Positions 1 through 18,020 of a DNA stretch of 64,000 nt are shown in pieces. Under the pieces are notes generated by a model. That model was given only the letters and a program-made list of their open reading frames with translations. It was not told the DNA's origin and searched no databases. The first letter of the stretch is position 1. Each line of letters opens with the position of its first letter. Origin of the DNA: Escherichia coli (lineage in GTDB: Bacteria > Pseudomonadota > Gammaproteobacteria > Enterobacterales > Enterobacteriaceae); the NCBI RefSeq assembly GCF_011045215.1, contig NZ_CP049201.1; one strand, written 5' to 3'. The translations under genes were made by a program, and so were the position numbers.

Positions 1-1
1 C

Positions 2-592
2 GGTAATCCTCCGGCATTTTCCCTGACATCAGACGGGAGACTGACGGCGAAAAATGCGGATATCAGTGGCAGTGTGAATGCGAACTCAGGAACGCTCAAC
101 AATGTCACGATTAACCAGAACTGTACGATTAAGGGCATGCTGGAGGCGACCCAGGTCAGAGGAGATTTCGTTAAAGCTGTATCAAAAGCCTTCCCGAAAA
201 AAGTCGGTACGTGGGGTAACACGGAAACACCAAACGGTACGGTTACAGTCACCATCAGCGATGATCATAACTTTGACCGCCAGATTATTATTCCGCCCAT
301 TATTTTTAACGGTATAGCGTATGACGATCCGGGGAGCGGAAATAACCCAGGAGGCACGCGATACACGGGTTATGGTTTTGAAGTTCGCAAAAACGGCGTA
401 TTAATCGCATCCAGAGAAACTAAAGGGGCCATTCCCGGTAGTTACAGTGCAGTTATTGATATGCCGAGTGGCAGGGGAAGCGTCACTCTGGAGTTTAAGA
501 TTTTCCAGAAAGGCAATCAGGGGGCAGGCAATATCACCGACTGTACGGTGATTGTGACCAAAAAAGCCGCTTCCGGCATCAGTATTCGTTGA
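2..592 (+). CDS. Phage tail tip / host specificity protein J, C-terminal part (5' end lies before the window)
   Basis: The reading frame is open from position 2 to the stop at 592. It is followed by lom, stf and tfa in the canonical lambda order J-lom-stf-tfa. Confidence 0.6.
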   Translation, partial: GNPPAFSLTSDGRLTAKNADISGSVNANSGTLNNVTINQNCTIKGMLEATQVRGDFVKAVSKAFPKKVGTWGNTETPNGTVTVTISDDHNFDRQIIIPPIIFNGIAYDDPGSGNNPGGTRYTGYGFEVRKNGVLIASRETKGAIPGSYSAVIDMPSGRGSVTLEFKIFQKGNQGAGNITDCTVIVTKKAASGISIR

Positions 593-614
593 AATATTTA
601 TAACCCCAATAAAG

Positions 615-638
615 GGCGTCAGGAATGACGCCTTTTTT
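615..638 (+). terminator. Rho-independent terminator after J
   Basis: 7-bp stem GGCGTCA/TGACGCC with GGAA loop, followed by a T6 run. Confidence 0.5.
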
Positions 639-662
639 ATTGCAGAAAAGCGAGAGGTAATT

Positions 663-1262
663 ATGCGTAAAGTTTGTGCAGCAATTTTGTCCGCAGCCAT
701 TTGTCTGGCCGTATCCGGTGCGCCTGCATGGGCGTCTGAACATCAGTCCACGCTGAGCGCGGGGTATCTTCATGCCTCGACGAACGTCCCCGGCAGTGAT
801 GATCTGAACGGGATTAACGTGAAATACCGTTATGAGTTTACGGACACACTGGGGCTGGTGACGTCATTCAGCTATGCAGGAGACAAGAATCGCCAGCTGA
901 CCCGTTACAGCGATACCCGCTGGCATGAAGATTCCGTTCGTAACCGCTGGTTCAGCGTAATGGCGGGGCCGTCTGTGCGCGTAAATGAATGGTTCAGCGC
1001 GTATGCGATGGCGGGTATGGCTTACAGCCGTGTGTCGACTTTCTCCGGGGATTATCTCCGCGTAACTGACAACAAGGGGAAAACGCACGACGTGCTGACC
1101 GGAAGTGATGACGGTCGCCACAGCAACACGTCTCTGGCGTGGGGAGCTGGCGTGCAGTTTAACCCGACCGAATCCGTGGCCATTGATATTGCTTATGAAG
1201 GCTCCGGCAGTGGCGACTGGCGCACTGACGGTTTCATCGTGGGTGTCGGTTATAAGTTCTGA
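663..1262 (+). CDS. lom: Lom-like outer membrane protein (Ail/Lom/OmpX beta-barrel family)
   Basis: 199 aa with a signal peptide (MRKVCAAILSAAICLAVSGAPAWA), alternating beta-strand pattern and C-terminal aromatic residue (GVGYKF). Position between J and stf matches lambda lom. Confidence 0.8.
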   Translation: MRKVCAAILSAAICLAVSGAPAWASEHQSTLSAGYLHASTNVPGSDDLNGINVKYRYEFTDTLGLVTSFSYAGDKNRQLTRYSDTRWHEDSVRNRWFSVMAGPSVRVNEWFSAYAMAGMAYSRVSTFSGDYLRVTDNKGKTHDVLTGSDDGRHSNTSLAWGAGVQFNPTESVAIDIAYEGSGSGDWRTDGFIVGVGYKF

Positions 1263-1290
1263 TTAGCCAGGTAACACAGTGTTATGACAG

Positions 1291-1316
1291 CCCGCCTGTT
1301 CAGGCGGGCTTTTTTG
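1291..1316 (+). terminator. Rho-independent terminator after lom
   Basis: GC-rich stem GCCCGCCTG/CAGGCGGGC followed by a T6 run. Confidence 0.55.
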
Positions 1317-1326
1317 TGGGGTGAAT

Positions 1327-4300
1327 ATGGCAGTAAAGATTTCAGGTGTACTGAAAGACGGCACAGGAAAACCGGTACAGAACTGCACAATCCAGCTGAA
1401 AGCAAAACGTAACAGCACCGCGGTGGTGGTGAACACGCTGGCCTCAGAAAATCCGGATGAAGCCGGGCGTTACAGCATGGACGTTGAGTACGGTCAGTAC
1501 AGCGTTATTCTGTTGGTGGAAGGATTCCCGCCGTCACATGCCGGGACCATCACCGTGTATGAAGATTCCCGACCCGGTACGCTGAATGATTTTCTCGGTG
1601 CCATGACGGAGGATGATGCCCGTCCGGAGGCTCTGCGCCGTTTTGAACTGATGGTGGAAGAGGTGGCGCGTAACGCGTCCGCGGTGGCACAGAACACGGC
1701 AGCCGCGAAGAAGTCAGCCGGCGATGCCGGCACATCTGCCCGTGAGGCGGCAACCCATGCGACTGATGCTGCAGGCTCAGCACGCGCAGCCAGCACGTCA
1801 GCCGGACAGGCCGCTTCGTCGGCTCAGTCAGCGTCTTCCAGCGCAGGAACGGCATCAACAAAGGCCACTGAAGCATCAAAAAGTGCTGCCGCTGCAGAGT
1901 CCTCAAAAAGCGCGGCAGCTACCAGTGCCAGTGCCGCGAAAACGTCAGAAACGAATGCTGCAGCGTCACAACAATCAGCAGCCACTTCTGCATCCACCGC
2001 GACCACGAAAGCGTCAGAAGCTGCCACCTCAGCCCGGGATGCGTCGGCTTCAAAAGAGGCGGCAAAATCATCAGAAACGAACGCATCCTCGAGCGCCAGT
2101 AGCGCATCTTCCTCGGCAACAGCGGCAGGAAATTCCGCGAAGGCGGCAAAAACGTCAGAGACGAACGCCAGGTCTTCTGAAACGGCAGCGGGACAGAGCG
2201 CCTCGGCTGCGGCAGGCTCAAAAACAGCGGCTGCGTCGTCTGCCAGTGCAGCGTCAACAAGTGCCGGGCAGGCCTCAGCCAGTGCCACCGCCGCCGGAAA
2301 ATCGGCAGAAAGCGCCGCATCGTCTGCTTCAACAGCCACAACGAAGGCTGGCGAAGCCACTGAACAGGCCAGCGCAGCAGCGAGGTCTGCTTCCGCAGCG
2401 AAGACATCCGAAACGAACGCGAAAGCGTCGGAAACCAGCGCAGAATCCTCAAAAACGGCTGCCGCATCGTCAGCCAGTTCGGCGGCGTCATCGGCATCAT
2501 CGGCGTCTGCTTCAAAAGATGAGGCGACCAGACAAGCGTCAGCAGCGAAGAGCAGCGCCACGACGGCATCCACGAAGGCGACAGAGGCTGCTGGCAGTGC
2601 GACGGCGGCAGCTCAGAGCAAAAGTACGGCGGAATCCGCGGCAACGCGCGCCGAGACAGCAGCTAAACGGGCAGAGGATATTGCATCCGCCGTGGCGCTT
2701 GAGGATGCAAGTACGACGAAAAAGGGGATAGTACAGCTCAGCAGTGCGACCAACAGTACGTCTGAAACGCTGGCGGCAACGCCAAAGGCAGTAAAATCAG
2801 CCTATGACAATGCAGAGAAACGTCTGCAGAAAGACCAGAACGGCGCTGATATACCCGATAAGGGATGCTTCCTGAACAACATTAACGCGGTCAGTAAAAC
2901 AGACTTTGCTGATAAGCGTGGTATGCGTTATGTGCGGGTTAACGCTCCTGCAGGTGCAACATCTGGAAAATATTACCCTGTTGTTGTTATGCGTTCTGCT
3001 GGCTCAGTAAGCGAACTGGCATCAAGAGTCATTATCACCACGGCAACGCGAACCGCAGGCGATCCGATGAATAACTGCGAGTTTAACGGATTTGTTATGC
3101 CTGGTGGCTGGACTGACAGGGGGCGTTATGCTTATGGCATGTTCTGGCAATATCAAAACAATGAACGAGCCATTCACTCAATAATGATGAGTAATAAGGG
3201 CGATGATTTGCGCTCTGTGTTCTATGTTGATGGCGCTGCTTTCCCTGTTTTTGCGTTTATTGAAGATGGCCTGTCAATATCCGCACCTGGTGCTGATCTC
3301 GTTGTTAATGATACGACCTATAAGTTTGGGGCAACAAATCCGGCGACTGAATGTATCGCGGCGGACGTTATCCTTGATTTTAAGAGTGGGCGTGGTTTTT
3401 ATGAGTCTCATTCGTTAATCGTTAACGATAACTTGTCGTGCAAAAAACTTTTTGCCACAGACGAAATTGTAGCGCGTGGTGGTAATCAGATTCGAATGAT
3501 AGGTGGGGAGTATGGGGCATTATGGCGTAATGATGGCGCTAAAACTTACCTGCTGCTTACCAATCAAGGTGATGTTTATGGTGGCTGGAATACATTAAGA
3601 CCGTTTGCTATTGATAACGCAACCGGCGAACTGGTTATTGGAACCAAACTGTCCGCAAGTCTGAACGGTAATGCATTAACAGCAACAAAGCTGCAAACGC
3701 CAAGACGGGTTTCTGGTGTTGAGTTTGATGGTTCCAAAGATATTACTTTAACCGCCGCGCATGTGGCTGCTTTTGCCAGAAGGGCAACGGATACATATGC
3801 CGATGCGGATGGTGGCGTTCCCTGGAATGCCGAATCAGGCGCTTATAATGTCACCCGCTCTGGCGACAGCTATATTCTGGTTAACTTCTATACCGGAGTC
3901 GGAAGTTGCCGGACCCTGCAGATGAAGGCGCATTACAGAAATGGTGGTCTGTTCTACCGTTCTTCAAGAGACGGTTATGGTTTTGAGGAAGACTGGGCAG
4001 AAGTTTATACCTCGAAAAATCTTCCACCAGAAAGCTACCCAGTCGGCGCACCAATCCCGTGGCCATCAGATACCGTTCCGTCTGGTTATGCCCAGATGCA
4101 GGGGCAGACTTTTGACAAATCTGCCTACCCGAAACTTGCAGCCGCTTATCCGTCAGGCGTGATCCCTGATATGCGTGGCTGGACGATTAAGGGCAAGCCC
4201 GCCAGTGGTCGTGCCGTATTGTCTCAGGAACAGGACGGCATTAAATCGCATACCCACAGCGCCAGCGCATCCAGTACGGATTTGGGTACGAAAACCACAT

Positions 4301-4728
4301 CGTCGTTTGATTACGGAACCAAATCCACGAATAACACCGGGGCGCATACCCATAGTATTAGCGGGACTGCAAATAGTGCCGGTGCGCACCAACACAAGAG
4401 TTCCGGTGCATTTGGTGGCACGAACACGAGCATTTTTCCTAATGGTTATACTGCGATTTCAAATCCAAGCGCGGGGATTATGAGCACAACAAGCGGTACT
4501 GGCCAGACTCGTAATGCAGGGAAGACATCATCAGATGGTGCTCATACCCACTCACTGTCCGGCACTGCTGCAAGCGCAGGTGCACACGCACATACTGTCG
4601 GTATTGGTGCTCATACGCACTCCGTTGCGATTGGTTCACATGGACACACCATCACCGTTAACGCTGCTGGTAACGCGGAAAACACCGTCAAAAACATCGC
4701 ATTTAACTATATTGTGAGGCTTGCATAA
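1327..4728 (+). CDS. stf: Side tail fiber protein (Stf family)
   Basis: Long ORF whose N-terminus ([26 protein letters not shown]...) matches the prophage side-tail-fiber family. It has an Ala/Ser/Thr-rich repeat tract and C-terminal GAHTHS-type repeats. ATG at 1327 is preferred over the GTG at 1321 used by the ORF track. Confidence 0.85.
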
Positions 4729-5309
4729 TGGCATTCAGAATGAGTGAACAACCACGGACCATAAAAATTTATAATCTGCTGGCCGGAACTAATGAATTTA
4801 TTGGTGAAGGTGACGCATATATTCCACCTCATACAGGTCTGCCAGCAAACAGTACCGATATTGCACCGCCAGATATTCCGGCAGGCTTCGTGGCTGTTTT
4901 CAACAGTGATGAGGCATCGTGGCATCTTGTTGAAGACCATCGGGGTAAAACGGTTTATGACGTGGCTTCCGGCGACGCGTTATTTATTTCTGAACTCGGC
5001 TTATTACCGGAAAATGTCACCTGGTTATCCCCGGAAGGGGAGTTTCAGAAGTGGAACGGCACAGCCTGGGTGAAAGATGCAGAAGCAGAAAAACTGTTCC
5101 GGATCCGGGAGGCGGAAGAAACAAAAAACAACCTGATGCAGGTAGCCAGTGAGCATATTGCGCCACTTCAGGATGCTGTAGATCTGGAAATCGCAACGGA
5201 GGAAGAAAACTCGTTGCTGGAAGCCTGGAAGAAGTATCGGGTGTTGCTGAACCGTGTTGATACATCAACTGCACCTGATATTGAGTGGCCTGTAATACCA
5301 GAAGTTTAA
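4728..5309 (+). CDS. tfa: Tail fiber assembly protein (Tfa)
   Basis: 193 aa; its start overlaps the stf stop (TAATG). Sequence and position are typical of lambdoid Tfa chaperones. Confidence 0.8.
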
Positions 5310-5314
5310 AATAA

Positions 5315-5340
5315 AAGCCCGCTTAAAATATCGCGGGCTT
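5315..5340. terminator. Bidirectional terminator hairpin between tfa (+) and the catalase gene (-)
   Basis: Stem AAGCCCGC/GCGGGCTT. On the minus strand it is followed by a T-rich tract (complement of TTTAAAATAAAA). Confidence 0.45.
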
Positions 5341-5428: not shown

Positions 5429-6319
5429 TTAGTTTTTACTATTTATCTTTGTTTGTGGTTCTCCTTCAGCAAGCTCAGCGCCAGTGACAGGATTGATGTC
5501 TTCATGGGATTTCAACCTTGTTGCCATAGCTTTTATCATAGCTTCTTGCTTGGTCGAAAGATTTATCGAGGCCTTCCCATCCCCACCGTCAACCGCTGGA
5601 ACTGGATCGGAAATATAGTCAAAGTTTTCATCACTGTTCCAACTACCTCTGACGTCTTCACCTTCTGACATGTTGTAATATACGTTTTTGTATTTCTCAA
5701 TTGGTGGTAATTTTCCTGGTGGAAAGGTGTTGCGAATTGAATGTAATGCTTTTTCAAATGAAAGCATGTGTGCTGCTTCCCTGGTCATTAAAAATGCCAG
5801 AGTGTCTTTTACTCCAGGATCATCAGTAACATTAATGAGACGTTCGTAAATGATCTTTGCCCGAGCTTCAGCTGCAATATTTGAACGAAGATCGGCCGTG
5901 ACTTCGCCAATAGTATCAACATAAGCTGCAGTCCAGGGTACTCCAGCTGAATTAGTTAATGCTGGGCCTCCTCCGTAGAGGAGAGAAGTTATATGGCTGT
6001 CATTGCCATTTTGAGTTAAGGAACGGTAAAGCTCAGCTTCATTCTCAGTTCCTTCAGCAAGTGCTCCTTTTGCACCTTTGTTGAGCATACCAACAAGAGA
6101 ACCAATAATTTCGAGATGACTTAGTTCTTCTGTTGCTATGTCCATCAGCATATCCCTTCGGCCTGCATCTTCATCACTTAAGCCTTGAGTGAAGTATCGG
6201 CATGCTGCTGCAAGCTCACCCTGTGGCCCGCCGAATTGTTCTAAAAGTAGATTAGCCAAGCCTGGGTTTGGCTCACTTACACGTACTGTATATTGAAGTT
6301 TTTTCACGTGTCTAAACAT
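5429..6319 (-). CDS. katN: Manganese (non-haem) catalase, KatN-like
   Basis: 296-aa protein with ferritin-like di-metal catalase features, resembling Salmonella KatN. A GAGGAGG ribosome-binding site lies 6-12 nt upstream. It is the last gene of a co-directional four-gene cluster. Confidence 0.8.
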   Translation of the reverse strand: MFRHVKKLQYTVRVSEPNPGLANLLLEQFGGPQGELAAACRYFTQGLSDEDAGRRDMLMDIATEELSHLEIIGSLVGMLNKGAKGALAEGTENEAELYRSLTQNGNDSHITSLLYGGGPALTNSAGVPWTAAYVDTIGEVTADLRSNIAAEARAKIIYERLINVTDDPGVKDTLAFLMTREAAHMLSFEKALHSIRNTFPPGKLPPIEKYKNVYYNMSEGEDVRGSWNSDENFDYISDPVPAVDGGDGKASINLSTKQEAMIKAMATRLKSHEDINPVTGAELAEGEPQTKINSKN

Positions 6320-6337
6320 AATGCCTCCTCAAAAGAA

Positions 6338-6844
6338 TTATTTTTTGGCTTCAACTCCATCAATTTCAGATCTGACCATGAATTGCTCAGTGGTGTCAGG
6401 AATATGGTTAAGAAGCCATTCAGCCATTTGTTTTTCTTCATTAAGAATTGCTTCAATAATGGGTACTGAAGCTGTATCACCCGCATTTTTGGCTGCTGCG
6501 AGAAGAGATGTGTAGCACGCAATTTCAAATTGTTCGAAAACATAGCCACTGATCGAACCTTTGACAATTTCATCAGATGGAAAAATTCCACCAATGGATT
6601 GCCCAAACGCGGCCATTTTACTCATAGAGTCTTTAATGACAGAGCGCGAAATATTATTACGATCAAGTATGCTTTCAAGCTGTGAAAGCTGGTTCTTTGT
6701 TTCGCTAATGTGCTGCTCAATTCTGGAACGTAACTCTGGATAGTTTTCTATCCGGCTGGCCATAGACTCAAGCATTTTTTCAGCTTGTTTCTCCATCGCA
6801 TGTGCATCACGAAGCCAGTCATGGTAATGTTCAATTCTATTCAT
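6338..6844 (-). CDS. yciE: YciE-like ferritin-like (DUF892) stress protein
   Basis: 168 aa; resembles YciE; tightly linked upstream of the catalase gene. Confidence 0.75.
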   Translation of the reverse strand: MNRIEHYHDWLRDAHAMEKQAEKMLESMASRIENYPELRSRIEQHISETKNQLSQLESILDRNNISRSVIKDSMSKMAAFGQSIGGIFPSDEIVKGSISGYVFEQFEIACYTSLLAAAKNAGDTASVPIIEAILNEEKQMAEWLLNHIPDTTEQFMVRSEIDGVEAKK

Positions 6845-6880
6845 AATCTGTTTATCCTAAAAGAAATTGAAGTCTATAGT

Positions 6881-7387
6881 TCAGGAGTTATCCTGAGCTT
6901 TTTTATTAACGTTATTAAATGCCAGGTCTGTTAATTTGACATCAGTAGCTTTTTCCTCTTCCAGTGTTTCTTTCAGGAGTTTAGCCGCTTTTTTATATCC
7001 TAATTGCTCAGCGAGTGTTACCAAAGTGCCATAACTGGCAATTTCATAGTGCTCTACTTTTTGTGCTGCAGCAATCAATGCAGCATCACGTACTTCATTT
7101 TTATCAGTGCTTTCAATTACCTCATTCGCCTCTTCGATAAGTCCTTCCATTGCGGCACACTTAATTCTTTTCAATTTAAGACCATCTTCAGAATCAACAA
7201 TCTGATCGATGCGTTCAATTTGACCATGTGTCTCATCAAGATGTGACTGAAAAGCAGCGGTTAATTTATCACTATATGCAGAGCGACTAAGTTTAGACAG
7301 TGCCTTTGTTAGTTGTTTCTCAGCGCTGTATGTATCCGATAATAAGTGGATGAAGATATCTTCAACAGATTTAATTTGCATAATCAC
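6881..7387 (-). CDS. yciF: YciF-like ferritin-like (DUF892) stress protein
   Basis: 168 aa; YciF-like sequence; same orientation and operon context. Confidence 0.75.
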   Translation of the reverse strand: MIMQIKSVEDIFIHLLSDTYSAEKQLTKALSKLSRSAYSDKLTAAFQSHLDETHGQIERIDQIVDSEDGLKLKRIKCAAMEGLIEEANEVIESTDKNEVRDAALIAAAQKVEHYEIASYGTLVTLAEQLGYKKAAKLLKETLEEEKATDVKLTDLAFNNVNKKAQDNS

Positions 7388-7400
7388 TCCAGAGTTTTCA

Positions 7401-7422
7401 CTGCGAGCCCGTAGGCTCGCAG
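7401..7422 (-). other. Perfect 9-bp stem hairpin between the yciG-like and yciF-like genes
   Basis: CTGCGAGCC-CGTA-GGCTCGCAG. No clear U-tract follows, so it is more likely an RNA stabiliser or partial attenuator than a full terminator. Confidence 0.3.
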
Positions 7423-7459
7423 TTAGCTTCAGTTATTCACGAATGTAGGGGATGATAAA

Positions 7460-7642
7460 TTAAGAGTCAGATTTACGGCCGCCACCATGGCTATTCTGAC
7501 CACCTTTTTTCCCTGCTTCTGATGCTCTTTGTGGATCGTTTTTAAAATTACCGCCACTATGTTGGCCGCCTTTACGACCAGCGTCAGAAGCTTTTTGTCG
7601 ATCTTCAGCGAAATTACCTGCACCGCCACGATGTTCGGTCAT
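7460..7642 (-). CDS. yciG: YciG-like KGG-repeat general stress protein
   Basis: 60 aa with repeated KGG and GGNF motifs (MTEHRGGAGNFAEDRQKASDAGRKGGQHSGGNFKNDPQRASEAGKKGG...); first gene of the cluster. Confidence 0.7.
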   Translation of the reverse strand: MTEHRGGAGNFAEDRQKASDAGRKGGQHSGGNFKNDPQRASEAGKKGGQNSHGGGRKSDS

Positions 7643-17705: not shown

Positions 17706-17820
17706 GCTCCGTTTAACATTCATTGAGAAAACTGATGCTACTGTGTCAACGATCCGTTATCAGTGCAGGAAAATGCCTGTTAGCGTAAAAGCAAAACACA
17801 AATCTATCCATGCAAGCATT

Positions 17821-17849
17821 CACCGCCGGTTTACTGGCGGTTTTTTTTT
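17821..17849 (+). terminator. Rho-independent terminator after dgcZ
   Basis: Stem CCGCC...GGCGG followed by a T9 run. Confidence 0.5.
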
Positions 17850-17924
17850 CGCCGTCATAAAAATCAGGCCCCTTGTACACAACTGTAACAAGGGGCCGGT
17901 TAGGTGAGGGATTATCTCCGTTCA

Positions 17925-18020
17925 TTAGTCATCCCATTTGTGGCTGAAATACGCGGCCAGAAAACCAGAAAATAAAATTATTCCCAGTACGGCCATAAAA
18001 ACATTCATATTACCCAGCAT
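17925..18020 (-). CDS. mgtS: Small membrane protein MgtS (YneM)
   Basis: Minus-strand translation gives MLGNMNVFMAVLGIILFSGFLAAYFSHKWDD (31 aa), matching MgtS. Too short to appear in the ORF track. Confidence 0.7.
   Translation of the reverse strand: MLGNMNVFMAVLGIILFSGFLAAYFSHKWDD

Follow-up and report, generated by a model that had tools for sequence, protein, structure and literature searches.

A lom gene between two predicted Rho-independent terminators in the tail operon of a lambda-like prophage of Escherichia coli

Organisation of the locus

The stretch of Escherichia coli DNA analysed here (64,000 nucleotides of contig NZ_CP049201.1, hereafter the window) opens inside the J gene of a lambdoid prophage, of which the first 592 nucleotides encode the Ig_GpJ_C receptor-binding domain. 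The matching J in a nearly identical E. coli genome (NZ_CM128595.1) is annotated as gpJ. There a prophage occupies ydfJ, the Qin site; the same block makes up its right arm, and the head and tail genes upstream appear intact.

The features of the locus are listed in Table 1. The J stop codon is followed by a spacer of 70 nt, the lom gene, a second spacer of 64 nt, and then the side tail fibre gene stf. The gene lom is a known accessory outer-membrane-protein gene of lambda-like prophages, located between two terminators in the tail operon. Its Shine-Dalgarno sequence is invariant across 80 related loci, and the phage 434 record labels it a ribosome-binding site. The region as a whole is a mosaic, with a GC content of 48.6% at the J end, 55.7% in lom and 58.0% in the N-terminal part of stf.

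Table 1. Features of the lom locus and of the adjoining prophage right arm, in window coordinates.
Feature	Position	Strand	Basis or remarks
J (tail-tip / host-specificity gene), 3' end, partial	1–592	+	Stop TGA 590–592; Pfam Ig_GpJ_C PF12421, E 1.9e-26
Intrinsic terminator 1 (predicted)	615–638	+	Stem GGCGTCA/TGACGCC 615–621/626–632, loop GGAA, T6 633–638
lom cassette (present/absent unit): 21-nt leader, lom, 3' spacer, terminator 2	642–1315	+	Alignment with lom-less Tritos and ev207; edges uncertain by 1–2 nt because both junctions lie within T runs
Shine-Dalgarno GAGAGG	652–657	+	5 nt 5' of the lom ATG, read from the sequence
lom, Ail/Lom-family 8-stranded outer-membrane beta-barrel precursor, 199 aa	663–1262	+	Pfam Ail_Lom PF06316, full length
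13-bp perfect palindrome TAACAC-A-GTGTTA	1272–1284		Between the lom stop and terminator 2
Intrinsic terminator 2 (predicted)	1289–1315	+	9-bp stem AGCCCGCCT/AGGCGGGCT 1289–1297/1302–1310, loop GTTC, T run 1310–1315
stf (side tail fibre)	1327–4728	+	Pfam phage_tail_N, Gp34_trimer, Collar
tfa (tail fibre assembly)	4728–5309	+	Pfam Caudo_TAP, E 3e-44
Manganese catalase	5429–6319	-	Four-gene cluster
Two ferritin-like ORFs, 168 aa each	6338–6844, 6881–7387	-	Four-gene cluster
con-10-like ORF, 60 aa	7460–7642	-	Four-gene cluster

A lom gene with flanking terminators is already known and ordinary, and the locus belongs to the 434/mEp460 type of lambdoid tail module. Phages 434 (OL657226), mEp460 (NC_019716), ev243, PhiR42_1 and many Stx-converting phages are 95–99% identical in DNA to the window over the J end, lom and the start of stf. 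Loci of the 434/mEp460 type differ from it by point differences only, for example compensatory changes of GT/AC to AC/GT or GC/GC in the first hairpin. The lom-containing form is found in 4,086 of 5,426 complete E. coli genomes (approximately 75%), often in several copies, and the GenBank records of phages 434 and mEp460 annotate both terminator sites as rho-independent terminators, by prediction only. With lom so common between J and stf, and with its terminators annotated in reference phages, the arrangement carries little weight beyond annotation.

The lom gene of lambda (NC_001416, 18965–19585, between J and stf/orf-401) belongs to the same family and occupies the same slot in the order J, lom, stf, tfa. 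The two Lom proteins have only 44% amino acid identity overall, whereas their last 27 residues are identical, and the 3' spacer, terminator 2 and the start of stf are nearly identical in DNA. The contrast between this low overall identity and the near-identical 3' end (window approximately 1180–1330 against approximately 1205–1372 of the lambda locus) points to a mosaic structure, with a recombination joint in the 3'-terminal part of lom.

The Lom protein

The lom reading frame matches the Pfam family Ail_Lom (PF06316) with 405.4 bits (cut-off 23) and an E value of 5e-122, residues 1–199 aligning to profile positions 1–199. The preliminary description of this DNA had called the gene lom-like and of the Ail family, and this identity is confirmed by the full-length match. 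Among solved structures, sequence comparison finds lambda Lom (9wso_C, E 2e-50), OmpX (1qj8/1orm, E 3e-18) and Ail (3qra, E 3e-17). The translation reads as a signal peptide (MRKVCAAILSAAICLAVSGAPAWA, followed by SEHQ...) with cleavage after ...APAWA and before SE, and it ends in ...VGVGYKF, an aromatic beta-signal.

The protein thus shares sequence homology with the 8-stranded barrels OmpX, Ail, Rck and PagC, but differs from them in being phage-borne and in having longer loops. The NCBIfam models for Rck and OmpX both match it below their cut-offs. Judged by these equivalog cut-offs, under which it falls, the Lom of the window is neither OmpX nor Rck. PDB entry 9wso contains lambda Lom as its chain C, 206 aa in length, under the name 'Outer membrane protein lom'. 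A search for partner chains of Lom in this entry used the C-terminus of lambda J and the N-terminus of Stf, and found neither of them there.

If Lom masks the receptor cognate to its phage, the protein would be expected to be coupled to J, and Lom was compared with the J receptor-binding domain on this rationale. Among IMG/VR loci L004–L083, the same Lom allele (96–99% identical), together with the same first hairpin, is found downstream of two groups of J, in which the C-terminal 135 residues are either at least 93% identical to those of the window or only about 38–44% identical. There is thus no tight coupling, the same Lom allele standing beside J C-termini that are about 39% identical to that of the window. 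The conserved block begins at the J stop codon, and the point between the J stop and the first hairpin is therefore a recombination boundary.

The flanking terminators

The preliminary description placed Rho-independent terminators at 615–638 and 1291–1316, on either side of lom. Both folding and a strict scan bear this out to within 1–2 nt. Terminator 1 begins 23 nt past the J stop, and folds with -17.6 kcal/mol (z = -4.4), a stability reached by none of 200 shuffled sequences. Terminator 2 begins 27 nt past the lom stop, and folds with -19.0 kcal/mol (z = -2.8), one of 200 shuffles being as stable. The strict scan demanded at least seven perfect pairs, of which at least five G-C, a loop of 3–8 nt, and at least six T in the next 7 nt. 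Over the 64 kb of the window, on either strand, it returned exactly two sites, which are terminators 1 and 2. Two such terminators flanking one gene are far beyond chance: the mean over 30 dinucleotide shuffles was 0.03 sites per strand.

A second terminator scan lists terminator 2, and shows terminator 1 on the minus strand only. We attribute the latter to the upstream A-tract (AATAAA), which pairs with the T-tract and so extends the stem until it absorbs the T tail. The A-rich 5' flank at 609–613 lends terminator 1 a bidirectional look. Both hairpins are, as predictions from sequence, credible Rho-independent terminators. A search of Rfam at permissive thresholds over positions 500–1450 gave only sub-threshold matches to small RNA and leader families, and thus no known RNA family in this interval; in our reading these matches reflect generic features of terminators. 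The palindrome between the lom stop and terminator 2 is shared by lambda and by almost all related loci; taken alone, it does not exceed what chance would produce.

The conservation of the first hairpin was assessed in 80 IMG/VR loci with this lom allele, together with the phage 434 locus and the lom-less phage Tritos. There are 11 distinct variants, and all seven core pairs are kept in every one of them (77 of 77 cells paired). Two of the pairs show compensatory changes, from GC to AU and from CG to UA, and the covariation score was reached by none of 500 shuffles. The second hairpin is 97.9% paired in 12 variants, in which there are wobble changes only, and so it gives no covariation signal. 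The T runs directly 3' of both stems are invariant.

Two further sets of sequences bear on the conservation of position. In loci of the type represented by L026 and L137, unrelated sequence has taken the place of the lom 3' end and of the entire spacer after it; this sequence ends in a strong 12-bp hairpin and a tract of six or seven T directly before stf. A second collection of loci, seeded with lambda Lom, contains four lom alleles that are 44–62% identical, all in the same slot between J and stf. Nearly all of its members keep a hairpin and T tract that end approximately 30 nt before the ATG, the stems themselves being different. Lambda is the exception, with a weak and short upstream hairpin (5–6 bp, z = -0.5, no better than shuffles) in contrast to the strong terminator 1 of the window.

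It is worth considering whether the hairpins could be inverted repeats that arose by chance and have no function. Weak terminator-like matches are indeed common, and 11 were found in the first 6 kb as against 6.9 expected. Such an origin can nevertheless be regarded as effectively refuted, given that the strict scan found just the two sites in 64 kb against the 0.03 expected, that hairpin 1 has undergone compensatory substitution, and that position is conserved across diverged lom alleles and in a non-homologous replacement terminator.

Another alternative is that the hairpins serve mainly to stabilise 3' ends of mRNA, or as processing boundaries, within an antiterminated late transcript, termination being secondary. 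In this way the J, lom and stf-tfa segments would be kept at steady-state levels that differ from one another. The two hairpins lie exactly at the cistron boundaries of genes that are necessarily co-transcribed, the structure of hairpin 1 is kept through compensatory change, and the demand for the products is unequal, in that few copies of J are needed per virion and side fibres are optional. All of this would suit such a function. The invariant T runs 3' of the stems are harder to accommodate, as they are needed for termination and not for protection from exonucleases, and the independently derived replacement in the L026/L137 type again has a tract of six or seven T. We consider stabilisation or processing as the main function improbable.

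One locus (L167) shows an unusual form of hairpin 1. Approximately 29–48 nt upstream of lom it has GGGCGCC-ATTTCT-GGCGCC, where other loci have GGGCGCC-AGAAAT-GGCGCC. The stem is the same and the loop is the reverse complement, as would result from an inversion of the complete hairpin.

lom as a present/absent cassette

Lom-less phages were found using a chimeric query composed of the end of J and the start of stf. In Tritos and ev207, J and stf are approximately 89% identical to those of the window and are joined directly, with only 60 nt between them. The order at this junction is the J stop, hairpin 1, TTTTTTATT, and then the stf ribosome-binding site and start codon, TGTGGAGTGAGT-ATG. A lom-less J-stf junction occurs in 261 of the 5,426 complete E. 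coli genomes. From these alignments, lom is evidently dispensable extra DNA in the J-stf slot.

Terminator 1 is retained in Tritos and ev207. Since phages that have no lom keep hairpin 1, this terminator belongs to the J-stf junction and not to the lom cassette. The cassette itself has probably either been inserted at the T tracts of the two terminators or is deletable between them. The lom-less form is nearly clonal, its junctions being 100% identical to that of Tritos in at least ten genomes, and four diverged lom alleles share the slot. Both observations hint at a recent loss of lom by deletion.

At the edges of the lom cassette there is a clustering of insertion sequences and deletions. 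In one locus (L078, 1407–2945) the sequence up to the lom leader, including J and hairpin 1, has given way to an IS66-family transposase; in a second (L111, approximately 2150 onward) an apparent IS element lies directly after the palindrome 3' of lom; and in NCTC9066 (L088) a prophage deletion extends from the terminase gene to just past the lom stop. As possible exceptions to the native arrangement these three were set aside, being secondary disruptions that are uninformative on it.

Search for a promoter

The preliminary description went further, and regarded lom as an autonomous transcription unit inside the tail operon, to be checked by a promoter search of positions 593–662. On the plus strand, neither a consensus scan nor a position weight matrix (PWM) scan finds a sigma-70 promoter above chance in or near this interval. 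The best site with a -10 element ending within 540–660 has a PWM score of 3.0, whereas on that strand a score of 4 or above is reached by more than 1,000 sites across the window. Scans of this kind detect sigma-70 sites and miss weak, activator-dependent and alternative-sigma promoters.

Several individual candidates were inspected. The only better-scoring site nearby, at 636–664, was rejected because its -10 element overlaps the lom ATG. A motif resembling a PhoP box and an A/T tract resembling an UP element were noted by eye within 593–613, and neither is convincing. Downstream of lom, the PWM scan finds no promoter-like site in 1263–1326, before stf, and the consensus scan likewise has none above chance ahead of stf. 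The stf ATG is 11 nt beyond the T run of terminator 2, and is equally near to hairpin 1 in the lom-less phages. Since stf and tfa are intact virion genes and this interval provides no promoter, their transcription must pass both terminators.

The suggestion of autonomy is thus unsupported: there is no detectable promoter in 593–662, and the DNA that belongs to the cassette begins at 642, after terminator 1. What the two terminators show is insulation, not autonomy. On the sequence, an autonomous transcription unit for lom appears unlikely.

Is lom a moron?

The gene had also been described as a moron. The concept (PMC3594210), of which the type example is gene 15 of HK97, refers to an extra gene that separates two tail genes which in related phages are neighbours, and lom resembles this in several respects. 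It lies between J and stf, which are directly joined in Tritos and ev207; it has its own downstream factor-independent terminator, terminator 2 being inside the cassette; and it encodes a protein of the host envelope. In GC content it stands above the J end and below the N-terminal part of stf. It differs in that the defining upstream promoter is undetectable, the leader specific to the cassette being only 21 nt long. The accessory status and the terminator of its own therefore stand, and the promoter of its own does not. This provides a useful correction, since to equate moron with autonomous unit in the present case is to argue from the terminators and from nothing else.

The alternative that has to be weighed most carefully is nevertheless that lom is a classical moron, with a promoter of its own just upstream. 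It would be transcribed in the repressed prophage, with terminator 1 shielding it from the tail operon and terminator 2 ending its transcript. The promoter would in that case be weak or unconventional, and would have been missed by the sequence scans. Part of the case for it comes from the literature. The gene is cited as a moron and as expressed from the prophage (PMC3594210, PMC7067206), and lambda lom is stated to be constitutively expressed from the repressed prophage (PMC7067206, PMC3594210, PMC12366544), which implies a promoter of some kind. In phage phi24B, induction leaves the level of lom transcript unaffected (PMC3342100), but the genomic surroundings of this lom are different. The same reading would be in keeping with two real terminators and with a lom that varies in presence among genomes.

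There is also a conserved motif between the J stop and hairpin 1 (TTTATAAC, 597–604) which contains TATAAC (599–604) and has the look of a -10 element. It was rejected as such, since it lacks both a usable -35 and a TG extension, and since transcripts would start just upstream of terminator 1. The remaining evidence weighs against a promoter at this place more generally. No sigma-70 site is above chance, the gap between the T6 tract and the lom ATG is only 24 nt and has to hold the Shine-Dalgarno sequence, and the lom-specific DNA begins after terminator 1. An array study of lambda did not detect lom in lysogens and noted that little is known about its promoter, which is uncharacterised (PMC2147009). 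Overall we regard the classical moron, in which the scans would have overlooked a weak or unconventional promoter, as rather unlikely.

It is worth adding that phi24B has a small RNA, 24B_1, described as lying 'between lom and vb_24B_43'. It was dismissed as a counterpart for the present locus on the grounds of its other genomic context, and the paper that describes it reports it to be absent from the analogous region of lambda.

Probable expression of lom as part of the late operon

The explanation that we favour, and that we hold to be probable with some reserve, is that lom is a promoter-less cassette, consisting of a ribosome-binding site, a reading frame and its own terminator, which is insulated within the late operon and expressed mainly late, by antitermination. 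Late transcription in lambda starts at pR' and is carried out by a Q-modified RNA polymerase that is resistant to terminators. The terminators of the late operon are reportedly the subject of a paper by Luk and Szybalski from 1983.

The cassette occupies the J-stf slot of a lambdoid prophage at the ydfJ (Qin) site of E. coli, directly after a terminator that is the property of the junction with or without lom. We hypothesise that during lytic growth the Q-modified late polymerase would ignore both terminators, and Lom would be made together with J, Stf and Tfa. This step is taken from lambda biology, the Q gene and pR' being located outside the window. In the repressed prophage, terminator 1 would block stray transcription from the tail genes, so that lom would be transcribed only weakly, through leakage or from a weak or non-sigma-70 promoter, and terminator 2 would serve to keep this weak transcription out of stf. 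The protein would be exported by means of its signal peptide and inserted in the outer membrane as an 8-stranded barrel similar to OmpX and Ail. There it may alter adhesion or block the adsorption of related phages, as has been reported for lambda Lom.

Published observations on lambda bear on this explanation. According to ribosome profiling by Liu et al. (2013), as it is quoted in PMC12366544, lysogens contain little Lom, and its level increases dramatically at late stages of infection. A cassette without a promoter, placed within the late operon, would show just this pattern. The same 2025 study (PMC12366544) found that over-expressed Lom protects specifically against lambda-vir, and it proposed that the role of Lom is to prevent non-productive adsorption. 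Our analysis supports the view, put forward recently, that Lom has a late role in infection. It also calls for caution in inferring expression in the lysogen, and hence relevance to virulence, from the presence of flanking terminators.

A broader proposal can be put forward more tentatively. It is possible that no lom allele has a promoter, that lom, stf and tfa are all expressed by Q-antiterminated read-through of a conserved J-stf terminator, and that Lom is primarily a late lytic protein. We would not place this above the level of a working suggestion. If true, Lom may block the wasteful adsorption of progeny to infected cells and debris, and would not be a factor of lysogenic conversion. 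The terminator-flanked moron would then be the wrong model for lom.

Other features of the window

Between tfa and the truncated ydfJ, on the minus strand, there is a cluster of four genes (5429–7642; Table 1), which appears to be cargo in the right arm of the prophage. We take it to resemble the RpoS-dependent yciGFE-katN stress operon of Salmonella. Just past the tfa stop, at approximately 5318–5340 on the minus strand, there is a hairpin GCCCGC...GCGGGC followed by TTTTATTTT, which looks like the terminator of this cluster.

Two Rfam matches reach gathering level. One is IS009 (RF02111, 227 bits), at 5071–5269 on the plus strand, inside the 3' half of tfa. The other is the Hfq-binding small RNA STnc560 (RF01407, 277 bits), at 17717–17931 on the plus strand, in the chromosomal part of the window.
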